Virus record (IMG/VR): IMGVR_UViG_3300025413_000008
DNA length: 58,977 nt
Reading direction: 5' to 3' (one strand)
Source of the DNA: a virus
Taxonomy: Duplodnaviria; Heunggongvirae; Uroviricota; Caudoviricetes
Position 1 is the stretch's first letter; each line of letters opens with the position of its first letter. Made by a program: the position numbers and the translations under genes. The notes beneath the pieces were generated by a model that was not told the origin of the DNA, searched no databases, and was given only the letters and a program-made list of their open reading frames with translations. This document shows positions 36,300-57,114 of the stretch, piece after piece.

Positions 36300-37445
36300 T
36301 CATCTTCCTTGAAGATTTTGTTTGGAGAACCCAAGACGATCAATAAATTTTACACCCTGAGACACAAATCCTTCTTGTGATTGTTTTCCATTGGCAAGGT
36401 AGCCGCGAACAGGACTAGTTTCTGCTGCTACATTCAGTTGATTGACAATATCCATCTTGAGATTATATAATGCTGCCCAAATCTTAAATGCGCCTATTAC
36501 GCCTTGCTTATGGTTATTCAGGTGTTCTGCTATTTTGATTTTCATTTTGTCCGACATGGGTCTTGCTTCTACAAAATTCATGAAATCTCTTGCTAAATTA
36601 GTAAGGCTACCCGATACAATTTTCTTATTGACAAAAACAGTAAACAGTTGATTAAATGTTTTGCGAGCCTGTGGAGCATTAGTCATGAGTTCACGAACAG
36701 AATTTCCATGATCAGACAATGCCTGTTCTGCTGCTCTTTTCAATGTCGTATTAATTCTCAATTTTGGAACAATTGGCATTTTACTCGGAACAATCGCAAC
36801 GTTAGATGCATTTTGCAAATTGCCGATTGATCCGTCCAATGATACTGCCTGATCCGTTGATACTGCATCAGCCGGAATAAATTGATGAACAGCAATCGCT
36901 GCGTCTTTGTCAGACAGTAATTTACCTACATCACTTTTTACATCAACCGCGTATTCAATGCCATTTGGATTTGCTTTGAATTTGTATACGTCAGCATGAT
37001 TAACTAATGGATGACTAAACAATAAATCTCCCCAATAATATCCATTACCTGCGCGATCATCCTTTTCAAGACCGGGCCATATATTAGAAATTATATTATG
37101 CAAATCACTGCGATCTACGCCACGATTTAAATCATATTGCGCAAATTCTTGAGGACTGAATACTTGGCGACCAGTTCCATCTTTTTTGTTAAACATATGC
37201 TTGTCCATAATGGAAAATTTACCATCTGAACCGCGTCCAAATATAAGTGCAGGATATCCATCCCATTTAATGGTTATTGATTGAGGATTCTCAACAGTTG
37301 CAACAATAGAATCTATGGCCTGTCGTGCCCCCTGTTCATCACCAAGAAACACTAAGTCCTCAGGATGTTCAAGATGCCCCTTTCCTTCAACAATCACATT
37401 ATTGATTGTTTCCATTTTGGTGATAATATCACGAATATCGGTCAT
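36300..37445 (-). CDS. Ligase-like nucleotidyltransferase-fold protein of unknown function
   Basis: GHLEHPEDL, TIKWDG (KxDG motif I-like), WGDLLF, C-terminal EGFV....KFIDR (motif IV/V-like). Confidence 0.5.
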   Translation of the reverse strand: MTDIRDIITKMETINNVIVEGKGHLEHPEDLVFLGDEQGARQAIDSIVATVENPQSITIKWDGYPALIFGRGSDGKFSIMDKHMFNKKDGTGRQVFSPQEFAQYDLNRGVDRSDLHNIISNIWPGLEKDDRAGNGYYWGDLLFSHPLVNHADVYKFKANPNGIEYAVDVKSDVGKLLSDKDAAIAVHQFIPADAVSTDQAVSLDGSIGNLQNASNVAIVPSKMPIVPKLRINTTLKRAAEQALSDHGNSVRELMTNAPQARKTFNQLFTVFVNKKIVSGSLTNLARDFMNFVEARPMSDKMKIKIAEHLNNHKQGVIGAFKIWAALYNLKMDIVNQLNVAAETSPVRGYLANGKQSQEGFVSQGVKFIDRLGFSKQNLQGR

Positions 37446-38844: not shown

Positions 38845-40263
38845 TTAGGATTTCTTAAGTGAATTGAGCATAGCCTTCAGTTTTGAACCTTGTGCATCGC
38901 CAATAACTCTACTACCAGATTCCTCAATCTGATTTTGAACTATTTGATTAGTGGAGCCTATTTGACTTGTTGTTTTAATTTGTTTCATAATCTGACTTGC
39001 ATTCTGCTGTGGCTTATCATCTGTATCGGGGTCTTCATCTGTTATTCTCATAGTTTCAATGTTATATTCTAAGTCAATCTTTTGACCTACACCAGTAGAA
39101 CTACGAGACTTCATACACTGAATTTGATATTTGCCACGTTCACGCATGCTTCTGCTTGTGAAAATACCAAACACATAGTCTGCTGTATTGATCTTAGAGA
39201 TACCACCAGCGATGTGGCTATGGTCAAATTCAATTTCTTCAACGGCACTACGGTTTAACTGTGACGCAGTTACCATTAGAATGCCCAACTCTTTTGCAAG
39301 ATTACGCAGTTCTTCTGATACATATTTGTCTTTGATAAACTGATCATTTGGATTGACTTTTACAGATACGGGCATAACCAAGTCAAGATAATCAATCATC
39401 ACAAAGTCAACTTTAATTCCCGTCTGAATTTGAACTTCTTTCAAATAAGAACGAATATCATTGACATTACTTTGTGCTGGCAATCCCTTAACGCGGTATT
39501 GTCCAGACTTTTTGGATACCATTTTCACCTTGAGTTCCGCAGTATCCATGTCCTTGCGAATTTCTTTAGTGCTCATGCTTGTAAGCATTGCATCGGTGCG
39601 GAGGGAAGTTAGTTCTTCCGAAAGTTCAAGAGTTATGTATACGCCGCTAAGACCCATGCTGAGCCAGTTTAATGCCATGTTCATCATGACAAGTGACTTA
39701 CCTGATCCAGAACCGCCCGCAAAAATATTTAATTCTCCGCGAGACATTCCTCCATACATGACACGATCAAGTTGTGGCCACCCAGTGCTTACTTGTCCAC
39801 CTGCATTAAAATATTTGTTAAGGCGTCCTTTAGGGTCAGCAAAATAATCTGTGCCCATATCTTTCTGTAGTGATATTTGGACCGCATCTTTAACCAATTT
39901 TTCTACTGGATTGAAATCTCCCTTTTCCAACAAATCTGCTGCCTTGAGAATGGCTCGTTCAAGTTCCTTGCGTTTGGTGAATGATTCAAATTCCTCAAGA
40001 AACCAATCATAGTGACCATCATCTAAACCGTCAATGGGGAGAATTTCTTTACCAGTAACGGCTTTTATTTGAATAGGATCGGGCATAACTGAATATTGCC
40101 CCGCATGGGTTACTATGAACTTAATCACAGGTCTAAGCGTTCTGCTAAAATTTTCGACATTTAAAATGTTTATAACTCTAGTATAAAGATTAGGATTCGT
40201 AATCATCATCCTAATGAACAATTCCTGTATCTCATCATTGAATTCTTGTATATGTGCTGTCAT
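38845..40263 (-). CDS. gp41: Replicative DNA helicase (DnaB/T4 gp41-like)
   Basis: STGWPQLD...GG, Walker A GGSGSGKS, ITLELSE, MIDYLDL, LRNLAKE, TASQLNR, KINTADYV, MKSR. ATG at 40263 follows the promoter at 40270-40298. Confidence 0.93.
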   Translation of the reverse strand: MTAHIQEFNDEIQELFIRMMITNPNLYTRVINILNVENFSRTLRPVIKFIVTHAGQYSVMPDPIQIKAVTGKEILPIDGLDDGHYDWFLEEFESFTKRKELERAILKAADLLEKGDFNPVEKLVKDAVQISLQKDMGTDYFADPKGRLNKYFNAGGQVSTGWPQLDRVMYGGMSRGELNIFAGGSGSGKSLVMMNMALNWLSMGLSGVYITLELSEELTSLRTDAMLTSMSTKEIRKDMDTAELKVKMVSKKSGQYRVKGLPAQSNVNDIRSYLKEVQIQTGIKVDFVMIDYLDLVMPVSVKVNPNDQFIKDKYVSEELRNLAKELGILMVTASQLNRSAVEEIEFDHSHIAGGISKINTADYVFGIFTSRSMRERGKYQIQCMKSRSSTGVGQKIDLEYNIETMRITDEDPDTDDKPQQNASQIMKQIKTTSQIGSTNQIVQNQIEESGSRVIGDAQGSKLKAMLNSLKKS

Positions 40264-40269
40264 CTTTTT

Positions 40270-40298
40270 ACTATACCATAATATATCTATAGCATCAA
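40270..40298 (-). promoter_or_regulatory. Sigma70-like promoter of helicase (leaderless)
   Basis: TTGATG-N17-TATAGT with extended TG; ATG 6 nt downstream. Confidence 0.65.
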
Positions 40299-40356
40299 CT
40301 ATTTTGTTAATTATCATTGCACAATGAGGATAAAATCATTATATTATGATATGAAG

Positions 40357-41096: not shown

Positions 41097-41194
41097 TAAG
41101 AATGATGGTTATTGACGGTCAGTGTTCTTGGGGCATCAGTGACCATCATTCTAAGAAACAAGGTCTGTATATCTAAATTAAATTCTGTTATCAA
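41093..41194 (-). pseudogene. Orphaned original 5' end of the helicase gene
   Basis: TTG-started frame overlapping the primase end: MITEFNLDIQTLFLRMMVTDA then unrelated PRTLTVNNHHSY*. 12/20 identical to helicase IQEFNDEIQELFIRMMITNP. Confidence 0.75.
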
Positions 41195-42152
41195 TTCTTC
41201 TTCTCGCCATCTGAATCTTAATCTTACTGTTCGTTGCTGATTGCATTATACTTAGTAGAGTTGGTAGTCTTCCATATTTTACTATGGCATCATTTACATC
41301 TTTTATGTCATCACCCCAGTTTGGAATGCTTACTTTGAATCCAAGTTCTAATGCAGGATCACAAATTTCAAGACCAGACTTATCCTGATCTGGAACGACA
41401 ATGATCGTTCTGTTCAAATTTCGCAATATATCAACTTGCGTTTCGTTTATGGTATTTGATGTTAATGCACATCCGTTTATACTCAATGCATCAAATATGC
41501 CTTCAACAACAATACAGTATTGCCATTCTGGTTTTTGAAAATCATAACCAAACAAATACCCGACCTGTTGTTCTTTAATGAACTTTGGTGTGCGGTTATC
41601 CAAATACCGACTGGTATGTCCTACAATTTTGTTATTAAATGTGTATGGTATAATAATGCGATTACTATTTCTTCCTTCTTCATCCGGAGTTACCCTGAAC
41701 GGATAATCTTTGTAATTTATATTTCTACTTTCTAAATAATCAATGAACACTTGATGCTTAGGATTGTTACTATCAATTAATTCTGATTTTGGAAGAGCGA
41801 CTTCATCAAACTTTATCTTCTTTTTCTTCTTGACAGTGCTATATAGTTCTACTAGATTCTTTTGCTTTAAACTGTCAAAATTCCACTCATTGATTTGTGA
41901 GTCATCTATTCCAATCCAATGCAGCAGCATTTTTGTGTTACCGCTGAATTGTCTACCCAAAACAAAGCCGCATTTAAATCCGCAATTAAAGCAGTGATAT
42001 GACCAGTTGGTTCCCTCACTAAACTTTATTCCGCCGCGCATACGTTTATCAGGCTTATGCCCCCGATGATGGCAGCAGGGTGCATTCACACTTGTCCATC
42101 CACTTGATGTGTGCTTTTTTCTTCCCGGCAGTAGAGATAGAATGTCAAACAT
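41178..42152 (-). CDS. gp61: DNA primase (T4 gp61-like, Zn-ribbon + TOPRIM)
   Basis: APCC...YHCFNCG, YLESR, RIIIPY, GHTSR, IVVEGIFDALS, VPDQDKSG, KDVNDA. Confidence 0.9.
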   Translation of the reverse strand: MFDILSLLPGRKKHTSSGWTSVNAPCCHHRGHKPDKRMRGGIKFSEGTNWSYHCFNCGFKCGFVLGRQFSGNTKMLLHWIGIDDSQINEWNFDSLKQKNLVELYSTVKKKKKIKFDEVALPKSELIDSNNPKHQVFIDYLESRNINYKDYPFRVTPDEEGRNSNRIIIPYTFNNKIVGHTSRYLDNRTPKFIKEQQVGYLFGYDFQKPEWQYCIVVEGIFDALSINGCALTSNTINETQVDILRNLNRTIIVVPDQDKSGLEICDPALELGFKVSIPNWGDDIKDVNDAIVKYGRLPTLLSIMQSATNSKIKIQMARRRIDNRI

Positions 42153-43072: not shown

Positions 43073-43453
43073 ATGGATAATAATGATTTTTTTAACAAAC
43101 TGACGCTGAATCACCCGTTTATTACGGTCTGTGCCTACGCAAGTCAAGATTACGTGGGCATAATTCAGAACAGAGATGACATGGTTACTACCATATATGA
43201 TTATGGATCAATAGTGCAATCTGAATTGAGAGAAAGATTTTTAGAATTAGGGGAAATATGGTGGTGGGAATCAAATAGAACTATTCCCATTAATATTTTT
43301 TTGAAAAAGGATTGGGATGTTTTTAAACCATACTTAAAGACATTTAATAATAAAAGCTTGGTCATACTTCATGGACCGGTAGTAAGCATCACCGATTTCT
43401 TGAAAAAACGATCAAAGAGACGTTCAATTACTATGGTTAAACGTCTTCCTTAA
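43073..43453 (+). CDS. Hypothetical protein
   Basis: 126 aa, YVGIIQN...WWWESNRTIPINIFLK. Confidence 0.7.
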   Translation: MDNNDFFNKLTLNHPFITVCAYASQDYVGIIQNRDDMVTTIYDYGSIVQSELRERFLELGEIWWWESNRTIPINIFLKKDWDVFKPYLKTFNNKSLVILHGPVVSITDFLKKRSKRRSITMVKRLP

Positions 43454-43662: not shown

Positions 43663-44166
43663 TTATCCTTTTCTATTCATTTTCTTTAAATATTTTGTGC
43701 GTTTTTCTTTGGCCAGTTTCACATTCATGTCACTGGCTCGCTCATCAAACGTAATACCCAACAGATGATCTAATTCATGAAGGAATACACGGGCTTCAAT
43801 GCCTGTCAATTGACGTTCAATTACCTCTCCGGAAGTGGATTGATATTGCACTGTGCATGATGCTGGTCGCTTTACCTTGAGCCACAATTCCGGAAAACTT
43901 AGACAACCTTCAATTTCAACAATGGGGTCATCATCGGGAAAAGATACAATCTGTGGATTAATACACACGACCATCTTGGTAAAGTTTCCCATAATAAATA
44001 TACTCTTGCTGATACCAACCTGAGGGGCGGCGAGACCTACTCCGCCGTTTTCGGTTAGAATTCTAACCATATCTTTTACCAACTCAGTAGGATCACCATC
44101 AGTTTCAAAATCCCATGCAGTGGCTTCTGCATGAAGTTTTGGATCATTTTCTTTAAGTAGTTCCAT
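43663..44166 (-). CDS. def: Peptide deformylase
   Basis: All three motifs present: GVGLAAPQVG, EGCLS, HELDH. Confidence 0.95.
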   Translation of the reverse strand: MELLKENDPKLHAEATAWDFETDGDPTELVKDMVRILTENGGVGLAAPQVGISKSIFIMGNFTKMVVCINPQIVSFPDDDPIVEIEGCLSFPELWLKVKRPASCTVQYQSTSGEVIERQLTGIEARVFLHELDHLLGITFDERASDMNVKLAKEKRTKYLKKMNRKG

Positions 44167-44175
44167 CAATAATCC

Positions 44176-44352
44176 TTAATCATTTCTTAGAGTGTGCCAA
44201 ATAATGTCACCCTCATTAACCCAAACGAGAATATTATCGCCTTGTTGAAAAAGTTCAGCACTTAATCCTTGACGCATTTCACCAAACGTAGTCTTTTCAC
44301 CATTCGGTATTTTTGCACGTTCCCATCTGATTGAAGGCTGATTCTTAATCAT
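44176..44352 (-). CDS. Small hypothetical protein (58 aa)
   Basis: Hand-translated MIKNQPSIRWERAKIP...WHTLRND; fills the operon gap. Confidence 0.5.
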   Translation of the reverse strand: MIKNQPSIRWERAKIPNGEKTTFGEMRQGLSAELFQQGDNILVWVNEGDIIWHTLRND

Positions 44353-44680
44353 CTCCGCGCTCCCTCAACTTCCGTTTTAGGGATTCATTTTCGCGTTTGA
44401 TTTTGGAAATCTTTTCATGAGACCAACTGAGTTCTTCATAGTTGTCTATAATGGACGTAATCTCATCGCGATTGATTTCGCGCAACTCATCGCCTTCCGG
44501 TGTAACGAAAAGCGTGTTAACGTCCCAGTCAAATCCGAGATAAACATGTTTTACTGGAACGCTTCCAGCAGGACCCATTTGTCCAACGCGAAATACAGGA
44601 ATGACAACCTGCACTTCTTCTGGATGCCGATGACGAGATACAATATTATCAATCATTGTCTTAAGTTCAATCAGATTCAT
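44345..44680 (-). CDS. Hypothetical protein
   Basis: 111 aa, overlapping its neighbours in the operon. Confidence 0.6.
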   Translation of the reverse strand: MNLIELKTMIDNIVSRHRHPEEVQVVIPVFRVGQMGPAGSVPVKHVYLGFDWDVNTLFVTPEGDELREINRDEITSIIDNYEELSWSHEKISKIKRENESLKRKLRERGDD

Positions 44681-45254
44681 TAATACTTCCTTCCGATATC
44701 AGATTCATATGGACCACAACGAGTTGCGCATAAGATATTGCGTGGCTACGTTTAAACTGATAGCCGTTATCATCTTTCTCCCAAACTGCTTGACTAATCT
44801 CTTTCCAAGACTTGCCAAGTAGATGTCGCTTTGCGGGGCGAATTGCTGCAAGAAACATAGCAAGACGAGGAATAGAGTCAATCGGCTCGGGCATTCTCTG
44901 AATGAAGTCGTAACTATTGTTGAGGTGAATTAATTGTTCAACAAACTCACGATTTTTTAGATTTGACCAATTAGGTTCACGCATCAATTCAATGATATGT
45001 TCTTCATTCTTCACATAGTTATACACGTGAACGTTAAGCAAGTCGAGCTTAAAATAACCGCGTTTGTCTGCTTCTTTGTAATCAACAGCAGCCATATCAT
45101 GAACAGGATCGTAAGGTATTTCGGTGATATAGACACCGCTGTTGTGTTTGCGGATAGGATTTACTTTTCGCATACCAGCAGGGATATGTTTTATAAGTGA
45201 CAAGATTTTGTCACGATCACCCAAATCAATGTCAATATCACTATTAATATTCAT
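44667..45254 (-). CDS. Miniature DNA polymerase III alpha (family C) palm/fingers protein
   Basis: SDIDID, KHNSGV, FKLDLLN, AAIRPA and FKRSHAISYA occur in the order of the DnaE motifs PDxDxD, HAGGV, KxDxLGL, ALYRPG and FNKSHxxxY. Confidence 0.75.
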   Translation of the reverse strand: MNINSDIDIDLGDRDKILSLIKHIPAGMRKVNPIRKHNSGVYITEIPYDPVHDMAAVDYKEADKRGYFKLDLLNVHVYNYVKNEEHIIELMREPNWSNLKNREFVEQLIHLNNSYDFIQRMPEPIDSIPRLAMFLAAIRPAKRHLLGKSWKEISQAVWEKDDNGYQFKRSHAISYAQLVVVHMNLISEGSINESD

Positions 45255-45802
45255 GCGAGGTGCGTAAAACCAGCAGCGATCAGTTTCTGATAGGCTTTCT
45301 GAGCAATGAATGCCTGACGCTCGGCGTCTTCAACGGCGATATGACTGGTCACATACCCATCATCCTTAACATTTACATTGGCAATTTTATATAGAGTGCG
45401 GCAGTCTCGGACAACCCAGAATTGGTATGGTATGTTGATTCCCAGTTGTCTCCACGCAGACTCAGCAATAGATATGTCAAAGGTTGCTCCGTTTGACCAA
45501 ATACCATCAATGTTCCAGCAAAACTTTGCCAACTGTTCCATACAATCCTTAAATGGAATTCTTCCGTCTTCTCCCATTGCTCGTTCAATGGCTTCTGGTG
45601 ATTGCGTTTCCCACCACTTCAAAGTTGACTCACTGATAGTGCGTCCGTATACTTCCGATTGTTCATCAATCATTGGAAGCAATTGCAATCGCTCAGTAAC
45701 TCCGGTGCCGCTTGGATCAAATTTTACTGCACCAACAGATAGAATAACAGAGTCCGGTGTGGTATCTAAAGTTTCAAAATCAATCATAATCTCAATAGTC
45801 AT
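45251..45802 (-). CDS. DEDDh 3'-5' exonuclease
   Basis: IMIDFETL, ILSVGAVKF, WSNGATFD, RDCRT, HIAVEDA. Confidence 0.85.
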   Translation of the reverse strand: MTIEIMIDFETLDTTPDSVILSVGAVKFDPSGTGVTERLQLLPMIDEQSEVYGRTISESTLKWWETQSPEAIERAMGEDGRIPFKDCMEQLAKFCWNIDGIWSNGATFDISIAESAWRQLGINIPYQFWVVRDCRTLYKIANVNVKDDGYVTSHIAVEDAERQAFIAQKAYQKLIAAGFTHLA

Positions 45803-45808
45803 TACTTA

Positions 45809-46099
45809 TTATCTCCATTTTAATAAAAAATATGTATGTAGTTTTTCATCTACTATTTCATATTTGTCAGTTATGTTTCCACTAACGATATTCATTTTTA
45901 TACCGTAGTTTTTTTCAACATAGTCTTCAAACTCATAGGCATCAAACTGTCCTGCGAGCGCATCAAGCGTTTCCATATACTCTGCGCGAATTTTCTTTAA
46001 TATATCCCAATATTCCCAACGTTTCTTGCGAAAGTCAAGTTCTGGGTCTGATGGGTCTACATCAGCTAAGCTTTTTTTGGGAACCATTACCACAAACAT
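45809..46099 (-). CDS. Small FxLxW-motif protein
   Basis: Ends YEIVDEKLHTYFLLKWR. Confidence 0.65.
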   Translation of the reverse strand: MFVVMVPKKSLADVDPSDPELDFRKKRWEYWDILKKIRAEYMETLDALAGQFDAYEFEDYVEKNYGIKMNIVSGNITDKYEIVDEKLHTYFLLKWR

Positions 46100-46140
46100 T
46101 ATCCTTATCTTATAACAGCAATTACTGTAAATGTCAAGAA

Positions 46141-46407
46141 TTACTCACACAACTTCCAGTGAACATATGTTCTTTCATCTAAAATAATATGCCCGGATAT
46201 CTTATACCATCTTCCCAAATAAACAGGATCACTATAGTGTTCGTAGCACCATTTTTCCAATTCGGATGACCCTTTAACCAATCTGTCAGTGCCCCAGACC
46301 GGTATTCTGATGAACTGCACCTCTTCCCAATTGCCGTTTATTTGGATTTTCTTTTTTATTTTTTGTGTTTGGGGGATTTGGTCTGTGATAATTTGAACTA
46401 TCCCCAT
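46141..46407 (-). CDS. Small FxLxW-motif protein (variant)
   Basis: LEKWCYEH...ILDERTYVHWKLCE. Confidence 0.6.
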   Translation of the reverse strand: MGIVQIITDQIPQTQKIKKKIQINGNWEEVQFIRIPVWGTDRLVKGSSELEKWCYEHYSDPVYLGRWYKISGHIILDERTYVHWKLCE

Positions 46408-46631
46408 GTTAGATTGAACCATACGTAATCTTTCTGATATCTGAACTTGACATCCATCGTGTCTCCCTGATACACCCAGCGGCAGTGACGTTCATGCTTA
46501 TCAATGTGTTCCTTGAGCCAGTTTATCACTTCTGCATATTTCTTTATAGAGCCATGGATATTTACGGATACTTCATGCCAGCCGGGTTTAGTATTTTCCC
46601 ATCCACGACTTAAGTCATAGTGTTCTAACAT
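46398..46631 (-). CDS. Small FxLxW-motif protein
   Basis: VINWLKEHI...VKFRYQKDYVWFNLTWG. Confidence 0.65.
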   Translation of the reverse strand: MLEHYDLSRGWENTKPGWHEVSVNIHGSIKKYAEVINWLKEHIDKHERHCRWVYQGDTMDVKFRYQKDYVWFNLTWG

Positions 46632-46632
46632 G

Positions 46633-46839
46633 CTATTCCCATCTCAACAAGAATGCTATCAGGTCCGACTCAGTTTTAAACTCTAAGATCATACCCTCCC
46701 GTATCCATCCCGGAGTGCATGCATCTGCCCATTCTTCAATCTCGTTACTTTTTTCAACATAATATCTCCAATCAACGATAGTCAATAATGGAAGTTTAAA
46801 ATAATCTATTTGCGAGAACTTCATAACCAAGAACTTCAT
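46633..46839 (-). CDS. Small FxLxW-motif protein
   Basis: IEEWADAC...LEFKTESDLIAFLLRWE; ATGA overlap. Confidence 0.65.
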   Translation of the reverse strand: MKFLVMKFSQIDYFKLPLLTIVDWRYYVEKSNEIEEWADACTPGWIREGMILEFKTESDLIAFLLRWE

Positions 46840-47057
46840 AACCATCTCAGTGCAAATAGAATTGCTGAGCTTTCATTATCAAAGTAGAATGTTTTGATTG
46901 TTTTATGTTCTGGTCCAATAGGACGATTACTTATCCAATTGCGATATGTTCCAAGGAAACCATCACAGTTATACATTGCCCACATTTCTAAGTCGTCTTT
47001 TTTATTGTATGATATATTTTCATAATCAACATTGACTGTGATAATATCCTCAACCAT
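46836..47057 (-). CDS. Small FxLxW-motif protein
   Basis: LEMWAMYNC...FYFDNESSAILFALRWL. Confidence 0.65.
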   Translation of the reverse strand: MVEDIITVNVDYENISYNKKDDLEMWAMYNCDGFLGTYRNWISNRPIGPEHKTIKTFYFDNESSAILFALRWL

Positions 47058-47788
47058 CAGTATCCACCCACTTCCAACAGTTGCTTGACTTGTATGACCA
47101 TATCAGCATCGCGTTTGAACTTTATTGCCCACTGCTCAGGGTTAATATATTCTAAAATATACTTTTGCTGAACCTCGTCCAATGCTTCAAGGAAGGAAAT
47201 TCCGCTCGCACTGTGAAACAGCATCCATGGGCTAATCTTACCATTTATGATATATTGACAAATACGATTACGGTTCACATAACGTAAACAATCCTTGCTC
47301 TGAATTCCCGCTTCTTTGGCAAGATCAATTGTCGTTTCAATGCTGCGAGCAATGGCATCAAGCGGGTCTTCATCTTTAAGATATTGAATTAGAAATTTGT
47401 TATAGTTTACATCGCTGCACCAATTGTCAATCTTAATTTTGTTGTCAAGCAACCAATCAGCATAACGGTTTACGTTGATTACTTTGACATTTACGCAATA
47501 ATGCCCAAACTTAACAAAAGCAATGTAATATGAAGATTTGGCAAAGTCCACGTAGGTAAGTTGTTTTTTAGTTGCCGTGTTTTTCTTGTAGAACCTAAGC
47601 CATGATTGAAAACCGATACGATTGCCAGCCAAGTCATGATCTTGCCATCTTCTTTTTTGTTCGCACAAATGGCTAATCATCGTTGTTTCCTTCTGGAAAT
47701 AACGATTGCAGAATTCACACTGAAATTCTGATTTAATTTCCGAGGGCTTTTTCGTATTCTTTAATGTCTTGGTCGGTAATAATTTCAC
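47057..47788 (-). CDS. Zn-finger-containing protein in replication cluster
   Basis: FQCEFCNRYFQKETTMISHLC (C2H-C finger) and GKISPW. Confidence 0.6.
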   Translation of the reverse strand: MKLLPTKTLKNTKKPSEIKSEFQCEFCNRYFQKETTMISHLCEQKRRWQDHDLAGNRIGFQSWLRFYKKNTATKKQLTYVDFAKSSYYIAFVKFGHYCVNVKVINVNRYADWLLDNKIKIDNWCSDVNYNKFLIQYLKDEDPLDAIARSIETTIDLAKEAGIQSKDCLRYVNRNRICQYIINGKISPWMLFHSASGISFLEALDEVQQKYILEYINPEQWAIKFKRDADMVIQVKQLLEVGGY

Positions 47789-50496: not shown

Positions 50497-51951
50497 TTAG
50501 ATGTCCAATTTTTCTGTTGTAAAGGGATATTCTGCTTCTTTATAAAAAACCTTACGTTGTGTTAGGTGGCGTTTTGCGAACTTACAAGTGCTTGTAATAT
50601 CCCAAATCTGCACAAAGTCCTTATCTTCTGCTTTTCTTACACCACGCCCAATGCTTTGAATAACACGAACAAACGACTTGCCAGGCTCAATAAGTACCAA
50701 GTTAAAGATACGAGGAATATTGATACCGACAGCAGCAACACCATACGTGGCAACGATAATTTTGTCATCACTTGTTGCAATTTCATCATATTCTTCTTTC
50801 CTTTCTGTTAATTTAGTATTACCATTAACAAACACTGCGTTTGGTAATCTGTTTACTAATTCTTTACCCGCGTTAACACGGTCAACGAGAACCAACGTAT
50901 TTCCGGTCTCAGTAATTTTTATGATTAATTCGCTGATTCTATCCAGCCTCTTTTCATCTTCTAAAAGATGCTTGAGTTCTGATTGATAATTTGCAAACTC
51001 TTTGTTATCTTTCATCTGAATGATGTTCACATGGCAGTTAGCAAGGACGCCTTTATCCTGTAGTTCTTTAGCCGATAGATTTCCCACAACAGGCCCAAGG
51101 GACACGAGAAGTGATACCCTATCCATTTCATCTTTAGGAATAGTTCCTGTTAGGCCCCATCTAATCGGAATTCTGGAAAGTAATCCGGTTAATAGCGTTT
51201 GTAAAATATTACCTTTAATTGAATGTGCCTCGTCAACAATCACGCATATTACGTCATCCAAGAAAGAGTTACGCAACTCTGGATCAATTTCAGAATCTGT
51301 CTTTTTATTTAAGAGGTTGTCCAATGATTGCCAAGTACAGATTGTGTGGGTTTTTCCGTATTCCTTGCGGTCGCCAAAATACACGCCAACATTTAATCCA
51401 AGATTGATGTAGTCTGCCTCGGTTTGCACAACAAGAGATTTGTTAGGAACAATTACAAGTGATCGCCCATACTTTTCTACACTCTTAGAGAGTGCAGCAG
51501 TTATCAGAGTCTTTCCAGCACCAGTGGCAATTTCTTGTAGCGACTGTGGATTTGACAGGAAGTTGTTTACGATTTCTACCTGATAATCGCGTAACATAAT
51601 AGGTTTGTCTTCGGCTGGGTGTCCTTTTGGCCACTTCTTATCAGCAAAGGTATCTTCTTTAATTAAATCAAATGTCAGGTCTTGGCTGCGCTGTCTTCGG
51701 TCATCAAGTTCAATATCATAATCATTATCAATTAAGTATGGAACAATCTGATCTAATAGATTTAGATAGGTGCTTCCTGCTAAAGAAAAGTAACTGATTT
51801 TACCATTCCATCTACCTAATCTTACAGCAGGAAGATATTTTGCACCGGGTTTTTCATATTCAAATTTTTTCATTAGTGCTCTGCGAGTGTCTAATTCAAG
51901 ACCTTCAATTTTTACATTACACTCGTCTTTTATTATTATTTTTGCTTTCAT
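50497..51951 (-). CDS. uvsW: UvsW-like SF2 DNA helicase
   Basis: LRDYQ, ATGAGKT, VPNKSLV.QT, VDEAH, GLTGT, GINIP, QSIGRGVR. Confidence 0.92.
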   Translation of the reverse strand: MKAKIIIKDECNVKIEGLELDTRRALMKKFEYEKPGAKYLPAVRLGRWNGKISYFSLAGSTYLNLLDQIVPYLIDNDYDIELDDRRQRSQDLTFDLIKEDTFADKKWPKGHPAEDKPIMLRDYQVEIVNNFLSNPQSLQEIATGAGKTLITAALSKSVEKYGRSLVIVPNKSLVVQTEADYINLGLNVGVYFGDRKEYGKTHTICTWQSLDNLLNKKTDSEIDPELRNSFLDDVICVIVDEAHSIKGNILQTLLTGLLSRIPIRWGLTGTIPKDEMDRVSLLVSLGPVVGNLSAKELQDKGVLANCHVNIIQMKDNKEFANYQSELKHLLEDEKRLDRISELIIKITETGNTLVLVDRVNAGKELVNRLPNAVFVNGNTKLTERKEEYDEIATSDDKIIVATYGVAAVGINIPRIFNLVLIEPGKSFVRVIQSIGRGVRKAEDKDFVQIWDITSTCKFAKRHLTQRKVFYKEAEYPFTTEKLDI

Positions 51952-53226: not shown

Positions 53227-54258
53227 TTAGTGACGACGCATTACGGTGCTTTCCGCAAGTGCCTTCCAGTTCTTAGGTGAGATTTTGATCAAATCAGCGA
53301 TTTTGAGAGCGGTACGAATAGACAGTTCACGGAGTTTATGGTTGTTAGCTTCCATGAAATCAAGAACTTCTTGTCCTTCATTATTTTCAAAATTATAATC
53401 GCCAAACAGCCCATTTTCCGCATCGCGATTAACTTGACGAATACGAAGCATTTTGTCGCGCTCCGAGTCAATAGTCAAATCAACGAAGTGGCAACGTGAC
53501 TCCAGTGCTTCAAGGTGATCTTGCAACTTCTTAGAACGAACGTTTTCAAACTTAAGGTTTGTAATGAAAATTGCCGAACCCTTAAAGTCAAAACTATTGG
53601 GGATTCCTTCATCCCGAAGAAGGCGAGAATCCGAGTTCCAGCAGATGCGACGACGCTTACCACTATCAAGAGCGGCCTTAAGAATGTTCAGGGAAAGTTC
53701 GTCAGCAAAGACACTATCACAGTCATCAAAGACCAGAACATTCTTCTTGTCACTATACTTGTAAAGTTGTGCGTAAAGCCCCAAGGCAGTCATGGCACCC
53801 TTCACAACATTGTGACGAATTTTGTTACCAGAGAGTTGGTCAAACAAAGCAGACTTTTCAAGCTGTTGCTCAACGCCAAACGACTTGCCAACGCCCGGAG
53901 GCCCCGAGACAATCATCGCCTTCACATCGCCACGGATACAAGCAGCAGCCATGTCATCCAGAATCTGGAAACGGTTGGAAATGCGATCCATTGCTTCTTC
54001 GTCAGTTTCAGTCACAACGATAGGCTTGCTGCCCTTTGAGACCGTAGTATTATTAACTTCATCGTCAATAATTTCATAATGCGATGTACTATCCACTTTA
54101 ATCCTTACTTTGTTGCAATCCACGGGAAACTTATCATCATTAAGAACGGTGATGAAAGAGCCGTGAACCCCTTCTTGAATGCCCTTGAGCATCACGAACT
54201 CCCGATTGATTACAGGCTTGCCGCGAAATTCACCATACTTTACGAGAACATTATGCAT
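53227..54258 (-). CDS. AAA+ family ATPase
   Basis: Walker A GPPGVGKS, Walker B VLVFDDCD, IFITN sensor 1, ALESR arginine finger. Confidence 0.85.
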   Translation of the reverse strand: MHNVLVKYGEFRGKPVINREFVMLKGIQEGVHGSFITVLNDDKFPVDCNKVRIKVDSTSHYEIIDDEVNNTTVSKGSKPIVVTETDEEAMDRISNRFQILDDMAAACIRGDVKAMIVSGPPGVGKSFGVEQQLEKSALFDQLSGNKIRHNVVKGAMTALGLYAQLYKYSDKKNVLVFDDCDSVFADELSLNILKAALDSGKRRRICWNSDSRLLRDEGIPNSFDFKGSAIFITNLKFENVRSKKLQDHLEALESRCHFVDLTIDSERDKMLRIRQVNRDAENGLFGDYNFENNEGQEVLDFMEANNHKLRELSIRTALKIADLIKISPKNWKALAESTVMRRH

Positions 54259-55757: not shown

Positions 55758-55901
55758 TCAATCGTTATTTTCCAACCGCTGCTTGATGATAGCAATCGTT
55801 TCATCAAGACATTCGTGAGAATCCGTACCGTCTAACTCAAGCATGGCCTTTGCCCAATCAAGGTCTTCAAGCGCCATTTCAAAAAGTTCTCTATCAGTCA
55901 T
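55758..55901 (-). CDS. Small hypothetical protein
   Basis: The 3' part of the track ORF (MTDRELFEM...), overlapping the ligase stop. Confidence 0.5.
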   Translation of the reverse strand: MTDRELFEMALEDLDWAKAMLELDGTDSHECLDETIAIIKQRLENND

Positions 55902-57114
55902 TATAAGCCAATCCCGGAAACCAGACATCACGAATGGCTTCATACTTTGTCGTGCGACCAAGGTTGTTGCGGATCGTGTTACGCACCGTGTTGTAGACCT
56001 TGGTCCTGTCACCCCAACAAGTAAAAACCGTGGCACGATCATACTGGTTGAAATTAGGTGCAACTTGAAGAGCAAAAGTTTTGCGGTCCATATTCTCTTC
56101 CGCAATCCTCGTCAGGATGTCTTGAATAGAGAGACAAGTAGACGCAACTTCGACATTAAAGTCATGCTCAAAGTGCGACAGACGATCACGATCCTCTGCA
56201 GGCAAATGAGCCTTGATGTCATCCAGCTTCTCGTCCAGAATGCATTCAACAATGTTGCGATCCTGTAGAATAGCTTCCTTCGCCTTGTGAATCTGGAGAT
56301 ACCAATGGCACTTCAACTTCAACATATGCCCATCATCAAAACGAACCACGAACCCTTCAAGGTCTTCCAGATCACGAACGTATTCAAGGAAAGCCTTCAT
56401 GTCAGTCTGCGGTTCGAATGCACGAACGACAGGGACAATACCAACACGAGCAAAAGCTTCAAGCATATCACGACTGGCATAAGTACCCTTCGTATTATGG
56501 CGAACAGCAGTCAGTATCAGTTGGTCTTCAGAACCATAATCCAGAACGATACGCTGCTTACGCGAACACCATTCAAAGATAGGGGTAAGTCCTCCGGCAA
56601 TCATGTCAGTTGCAAACTCAATATACTGCGGATTGTTCTTCACAAACTCCTCAACAGGCTTTGCCACATCGGTAGCACCCATCTTCGTGCCCCAGATCAT
56701 CTGACCATTCACAATGAACGGTGCAATCATCGAACCATCCAGCTTCTCAAGGATAGCATGAGGGCGCGACAGATCAATGACATGATCCTGAGTCTCTTCA
56801 CGCTCATTCACATTGAAGAACTTATGGAACGGGCGACGAATGATATCACCAGTTTCAGTATCAAAGATGATACCACGACACTCACGGCGAATCTTGGCAT
56901 CATCATCCAAAGTGAAATAGTCTTTCCAATCTTCAGGGGGGCGACTAGCTTTTTGCCACGTGTGGTGTTCGGTCTTCCCAAAGGTGTCATCCATCATCAC
57001 GTTGTAGTTGATGACGGTATAGCCTTCCTTCTGAGCCACAACGAACTCATCGCGACCTTCAATAGCAGGCAGCACATCAGAAATGTTTTTAATAACTGGG
57101 AAGGTATAATCCAT
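55894..57114 (-). CDS. rnlA: RNA ligase 1 (T4 RnlA-like)
   Basis: RECRGIIFD, RPFHKFFNVNE, EKLDGS, FEWCS...RIV, EGFVV, KLKCHWY..IH. Confidence 0.9.
   Translation of the reverse strand: MDYTFPVIKNISDVLPAIEGRDEFVVAQKEGYTVINYNVMMDDTFGKTEHHTWQKASRPPEDWKDYFTLDDDAKIRRECRGIIFDTETGDIIRRPFHKFFNVNEREETQDHVIDLSRPHAILEKLDGSMIAPFIVNGQMIWGTKMGATDVAKPVEEFVKNNPQYIEFATDMIAGGLTPIFEWCSRKQRIVLDYGSEDQLILTAVRHNTKGTYASRDMLEAFARVGIVPVVRAFEPQTDMKAFLEYVRDLEDLEGFVVRFDDGHMLKLKCHWYLQIHKAKEAILQDRNIVECILDEKLDDIKAHLPAEDRDRLSHFEHDFNVEVASTCLSIQDILTRIAEENMDRKTFALQVAPNFNQYDRATVFTCWGDRTKVYNTVRNTIRNNLGRTTKYEAIRDVWFPGLAYND

Follow-up and report, generated by a model that had tools for sequence, protein, structure and literature searches.

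The 195-aa protein encoded on the minus strand of a 58,977-nucleotide stretch of Caudoviricetes DNA (IMG/VR record IMGVR_UViG_3300025413_000008; the whole stretch is called the window below) is the C-terminal unit of the already described split minimal Pol III alpha of jumbo phages (PMC7824862). From its sequence and its predicted structure, it very probably serves as the C-terminal subunit of a two-piece polymerase that is accessory to a family B polymerase (PolB).

The comparative study by Iyer, Anantharaman, Krishnan, Burroughs and Aravind (2021, Viruses 13:63; PMC7824862) describes a minimal Pol III alpha that is specific to phages and occurs in the group 2.2 jumbo phages. According to that study, the enzyme comes as two proteins whose genes lie far apart, an N-terminal one that binds NTP and a C-terminal one that binds Mg2+ and the template (N-half and C-half below); it accompanies a family B polymerase and has been proposed as a model of the ancestral core of Pol III. 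In a literature search for bench or biochemical work on either half, the 2021 comparative paper alone was found.

Gene layout and sequence motifs

The coordinates of the features are given in Table 1. A preliminary description of the window had reported an intact 195-aa gene joined to an upstream ORF by an ATGA overlap, and both ORFs were found as stated there. The plus strand reads TCAT at 45251-45254, which gives ATGA on the minus strand, the TGA stop codon of the exonuclease gene overlapping the ATG of the 195-aa gene. A 111-codon ORF downstream starts 14 bases ahead of the stop codon of the 195-aa gene; with this 14-base overlap the minus-strand string of genes is tightly packed. All of the DnaE palm and finger motifs listed previously were located in the protein in the right order: SDIDID (residues 5-10), KHNSGV (36-41), FKLDLL (68-73), IRPA (138-141) and FKRSHAISYA (167-176). 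Judged from the sequence, the occurrence of these DnaE-type motifs is far beyond chance. An identical copy of the protein is encoded on a 278,938-base contig. The source phage lineage is uncultured, no near DNA match being present among 50,697 phage records.

Table 1. Features of the window referred to in the text
Feature	Position	Strand	Description	Evidence
DUF6267 protein gene	36300-37445	-	Flanks the replication block	DUF6267 at 1.5e-34
Helicase gene	38845..40317	-	DnaB-type replicative helicase	PF03796 DnaB_C at 3e-21
Primase gene	41178..42152	-	Toprim (DnaG-type) primase	PF13155 Toprim_2
phrog_11637 gene	43073..43453	+	126-aa protein, convergent conserved neighbour	phrog_11637 at 4.5e-33
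Inserted genes	43663-44680	-	111-aa phrog_6026 protein, 58-aa ORF, peptide deformylase	PF01327 at 5e-38 (deformylase)
C-half gene	44667..45254	-	C-terminal subunit of split minimal Pol III alpha-like polymerase (predicted), 195 aa	Profile, AlphaFold2 model, conservation
Stop/start overlap	45251..45254	-	ATGA, exonuclease gene/C-half gene	Direct sequence read
Exonuclease gene	45251..45802	-	DexA-like DEDDh 3'-5' exonuclease, 183 aa	PF16473, phrog_255
phrog_11058 gene	47057..47788	-	243-aa protein with N-terminal C2H2-like zinc finger	phrog_11058 at 5e-55
RNA ligase gene	55894-57114	-	T4 Rnl1-type RNA ligase; flanks the replication block	1e-34

Homology and predicted fold

A Pfam scan of the 195-aa protein recognized no domain, PHP included, and phmmer with the single sequence gave no match in the PDB. 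A full-length match to phrog_11778, annotated 'DNA polymerase', was obtained in PHROGs (4e-57). A family alignment of 85 members was drawn from 50%-identity representatives, and with the resulting profile all nine matches in the PDB were Pol III alpha chains (best E value 8e-6). In the profile alignment the E. coli counterparts are K553/D555 for K69/D71, R639/P640 for R139/P140 and K758-H760 for the KSH motif.

An AlphaFold model calculated from the single sequence had a pLDDT of 36 and was discarded; an AlphaFold2 run based on the 85-member alignment was used instead and gave a model with a mean pLDDT of 95.5. When this model was compared with the PDB using Foldseek, the top 14 matches were all C-family polymerases. 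In the VIA structure search, which is independent of Foldseek, the first seven rows were again C-family polymerases (Z 9.9-7.5), each aligning 190-192 of the 195 residues, with PolC at Z 9.9, Thermus Pol III alpha and M. tuberculosis DnaE1 at 9.5 and E. coli alpha at 7.8; the next fold below them reached only Z 4.0. The ranges aligned with the model were 397-788 of E. coli alpha, 458-845 of the Taq enzyme and 968-1303 of Geobacillus PolC.

On the combined evidence of profile and model, the protein is homologous to the C-terminal part of the DnaE palm together with the template-binding finger core. The DnaE-palm fold anticipated in the preliminary description was thus recovered, 192 of 195 residues being matched to PolC/DnaE, and mapping onto E. 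coli alpha confirmed that the internal deletions (the thumb and much of the fingers) preserve the motifs.

Residue conservation and selection

The catalytic aspartates are near-invariant in the 85-sequence alignment: D6 and D8 are retained in 84 sequences each, D10 in 83 and D71 in all 85. K69, R139 and P140 are present in 85/85, and H37, G40 and H171 in 83-84 of the 85. D8, D10 and D71 had been named previously as the catalytic residues. D71 stands and all of the aspartates are retained, but the naming of the other two was one step off. The segment SDIDIDL aligns without gaps with PDFDVDF of E. coli (400-406), and position 5 of the family is most often proline; D6 and D8 are therefore the counterparts of the catalytic D401 and D403, and D10 that of D405. 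Since D6, D8 and D10 each occur in at least 83 of the 85 sequences, the earlier point about catalytic aspartates holds despite the misnaming.

Pairwise dN/dS values between the C-half and its closest relatives were 0.06-0.11. The family comprises more than 8000 clusters at 90% identity and 401 representatives at 50% identity, with a length of about 190 aa (185-205 aa among the relatives listed, and 188-205 aa in the 120 clusters listed at 90% identity). By these measures the 195-aa protein is functional and under strong purifying selection, not a remnant, and the earlier view of it as streamlined and not decayed agrees with a dN/dS of about 0.1 and a length that is stable over thousands of clusters.

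The N-terminal half and its natural fusion

With only five residues ahead of its DxD strand, the 195-aa protein does not include the phosphate-binding GRGS unit (E. coli 361-364). This unit is present in P0174, a natural N+C fusion of 375 aa in which the first half contains VGRGSSSASL and runs directly into ADFDID. P0174 is colinear with residues 350-416 of E. coli alpha, its GRGS...DFDID segment matching 361-405, and the fusion junction lies within the PF07733 match. Fused forms were found in three clusters only (P0174, P0392 and P0393; 375-376 aa), all on short contigs, as against thousands of split clusters; the available part of Iyer et al. (2021; PMC7824862) makes no mention of them.

Using P0174 as the query, a separate 168-aa N-half ORF was found in G001, a complete 360,683-base IMG/VR phage with a C-half 82% identical to that of the window. 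This ORF ends just past the GRGS helix, before the DxD strand, and scores above the Pfam cut-off for PF07733; the N-half maps to 352.4 kb and the C-half to 37.0 kb. The N-half forms more than 8000 clusters with a length of about 168 aa. Among cultured jumbo-phage records it occurs in 92 and the C-half in 96, with an identical taxon breakdown, and wherever both halves are listed the N-half is 4.8-224 kb from the C-half. No N-half was detected in the 59-kb window by the GRGS pattern or by tblastn with P0174 and with the N-half of G001; from the relatives, it is presumably encoded elsewhere in the genome of this phage. The 195-aa protein was therefore not upheld as a self-sufficient miniature polymerase, as had been proposed: it holds only the C-terminal half of the palm and a finger stub, the GRGS half being a separate 168-aa protein in relatives.

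The preliminary description had also raised the presence of a separate polymerase or of other DnaE pieces. A PolB ORF of 918 aa is present in G001 in addition to the distant N-half; a search of the same genome for a PHP domain or further DnaE pieces found none, and a full-length dnaE in the relatives was accordingly rejected. The window also encodes UvsW, Rnl1, DnaB, the Toprim primase, a gp15-like protein and a T4-type sheath; PolB was seen in G001 only and not in the window. In G001 (L020:729-1103, minus strand) the N-half gene is followed by genes for a 117-aa acidic protein and then for a 124-aa protein, putatively GroES/gp31-like by eye.

Gene neighbourhood

The order phrog_11058, variable slot, C-half, convergent phrog_11637, 261-aa protein, Toprim primase and DnaB helicase is kept from the window via IMG/VR relatives to the PA5oct-type phages and Atu_ph07. 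The primase gene keeps its place in every locus that extends far enough. The phrog_11058 gene, which forms the upstream flank of the variable slot, is syntenic in L001-L010, L016 and Atu_ph07. Of the cultured jumbo-phage records, 89 carry phrog_11637, and in 12 of the 12 compared its gene lies tail-to-tail with the C-half gene, often overlapping it; the tail-to-tail arrangement was also found in L012-L018, L001 (8584-8934) and L023 (5551-5910). It is a far steadier neighbour of the C-half than the exonuclease is. A protein-atlas search with the phrog_11637 neighbour returned nothing from which a fold or function could be assigned.

Three genes are inserted between the C-half and phrog_11637 genes in the window. 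The same insertion is found in L002-L005, the deformylase gene alone in L007, L008, L011 and L012, and none of the three in L013-L018. The variable slot (45809-47057, minus strand) carries small genes (96, 93 and 77 aa, and others) that are kept in relatives, their number and identity varying (38-87%). Between the DUF6267 and Rnl1 genes lie also those for UvsW (50497-51951) and for an AAA+ protein of phrog_1250 (53227-54258).

The upstream exonuclease

The assignment of the upstream gene as a DEDDh exonuclease was confirmed: the 183-aa protein matches PF16473 (Rv2179c-like) at 1.4e-32 and has the complete set of DEDDh residues (D8, E10, D109, H154 and D159). It belongs to phrog_255 and matches PDB entry 8kel ('exodeoxyribonuclease') at 6e-7. 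Exonucleases of this type are found in 1286 phage records, T4-type dexA included.

Among the loci with enough sequence, the exonuclease gene is upstream of the C-half gene in 11 IMG/VR loci. It is absent from this position in L003 and L004 (both with an 82% identical C-half), L011, the PA5oct-type phages and Atu_ph07; in L011 the small gene that comes before the C-half gene runs directly up to it. A search for it anywhere in the complete relative G001 gave an empty answer, which carries little weight. Its lack beside the C-half in close relatives marks it as a gene of the variable slot and not a fixed partner, and these comparisons show its adjacency to be incidental, that of an accessory gene which is an optional neighbour of the C-half. 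The polymerase-exonuclease coupling of the preliminary description is reduced to local synteny, which close relatives lack, as do all of the cultured relatives examined.

Discussion

In the proposed mechanism, the C-half would contribute the strand on which the catalytic D6 and D8 lie together with D10, the KxD strand with K69 and D71, and a reduced finger element (R139-P140 and K/R169-S170-H171); in bacterial Pol III alpha, the counterparts of these residues touch the template and the incoming dNTP. The N-half of about 168 aa would complete the Pol-beta-type nucleotidyltransferase palm with its GRGS helix-strand unit. The two proteins would associate non-covalently to rebuild one active site in an enzyme of about 360 aa, which may carry out DNA-templated synthesis over short stretches in an accessory role next to the family B replicase. 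Lacking the thumb, clamp-binding and OB domains, the reconstituted enzyme would be distributive. Its conserved place beside the primase and helicase genes suggests a role in primer extension or gap filling. In a more specific version, which we consider rather unlikely as it stands, the N+C enzyme would be the primer-extending polymerase of the phage primosome (cf. eukaryotic Pol alpha and Bacillus DnaE3) and would hand over to PolB, with the phrog_11637 protein and the zinc-finger protein of phrog_11058 as subunits replacing the lost thumb and clamp-binding domains.

The same features can be read in other ways. The 195-aa protein might be a polymerase or nucleotidyltransferase in its own right, working with the coupled DEDDh exonuclease in the manner of alpha and epsilon. 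It does have three metal-binding aspartates on one chain and is confidently folded alone in silico, and the ATGA overlap and the 11 IMG/VR loci with the exonuclease upstream would fit such a partnership. The GRGS NTP-binding unit required by every Pol-beta-type palm is nevertheless missing from it; a separate gene for this unit occurs alongside that for the C-half, and the 375-aa form has the two joined. The exonuclease, for its part, is a general phage gene (1286 records) that is missing beside the C-half in the loci and cultured phages named above and for which the search of G001 came back empty. A self-sufficient enzyme is thus very improbable. It is less far-fetched, although still improbable, that the N+C heterodimer is active but not as a templated DNA polymerase; it might, for example, tail primers or RNA, act as a terminal transferase, or be a nucleotidyltransferase in nucleotide signalling or DNA modification. 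The Pol-beta-type fold serves many chemistries, and the domains by which duplex DNA is held (thumb, clamp-binding and OB) are gone. Against this, the RP and KSH finger residues that bind dNTP and template are conserved to the same degree as the catalytic aspartates, the structural relatives are exclusively replicative C-family polymerases and the gene is located in a primase-helicase block.

Because the protein is far shorter than DnaE, it could also be a decaying fragment of a full-length dnaE or, DnaE being the classic split-intein protein of cyanobacteria, a split-intein exon. Decay is contradicted by the dN/dS of about 0.1, by the stable length across thousands of clusters and by the absence of other DnaE pieces from the complete relative G001. 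The C-half has just five residues ahead of its DxD strand, and the N-half stops directly after the GRGS helix; such short junctions leave no room for split-intein halves. We regard the chance of either as negligible, and both a split intein and a pseudogene remnant were ruled out (junctions without room, dN/dS of 0.06-0.11, fixed length).

Read as the C-terminal subunit of a split accessory polymerase, the protein is one more uncultured member of a known family, not an enzyme of a new kind. No smaller relative of the bacterial replicative polymerase is known than the split minimal Pol III, and each of the two halves is represented by thousands of metagenome sequence clusters. The conserved primase-helicase neighbourhood and the rare natural fusion are useful entry points for biochemistry, the fusion being a convenient single-chain construct.

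Comparison with known systems

Pol-beta-type palm strands and a finger core are common to E. coli DnaE, Thermus Pol III alpha, Geobacillus PolC and the present protein, and the E. coli residues D401, D403 and D555 (catalytic), K553, R639 and K758-H760 all have counterparts in it. The PHP, thumb, beta-clamp-binding, OB and tau-binding domains of the bacterial C-family polymerases are lacking. The spacing is compressed: D403 and H511 are 108 residues apart in E. coli versus 29 here, and R639 and K758 are 119 apart versus 30. The model covers only residues 397-788 of E. coli alpha, with about 200 residues deleted, and the palm is split over two polypeptides whereas bacterial DnaE and PolC have it in one chain.

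The exonuclease shares PF16473 and the DEDDh residues with T4 DexA and Rv2179c-like proteins, being 24.5% identical to T4-type dexA over 94% of its length (183 aa, versus 227 aa for T4 DexA). Unlike T4 DexA, it adjoins the C-half of a minimal Pol III, in part of this phage lineage only. In an alpha-epsilon-like proofreading pair a consistent association with the exonuclease across relatives would be expected, and the C-half does not show it.

The closest system is the split Pol III alpha of the group 2.2 phages (PHROG 11778). Both consist of a standalone protein of about 195 aa with DxD and KxD strands and RP and KSH finger motifs, and the present protein shows 35-46% full-length identity to those of PA5oct, Atu_ph07, RaK2/GAP32/CBB/121Q-type phages and XacN1. 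The primase-helicase neighbourhood is likewise shared, the N-half being distant in the relatives. In the window, unlike in the cultured group 2.2 copies, a DexA-like exonuclease gene and several small genes are inserted around the C-half.
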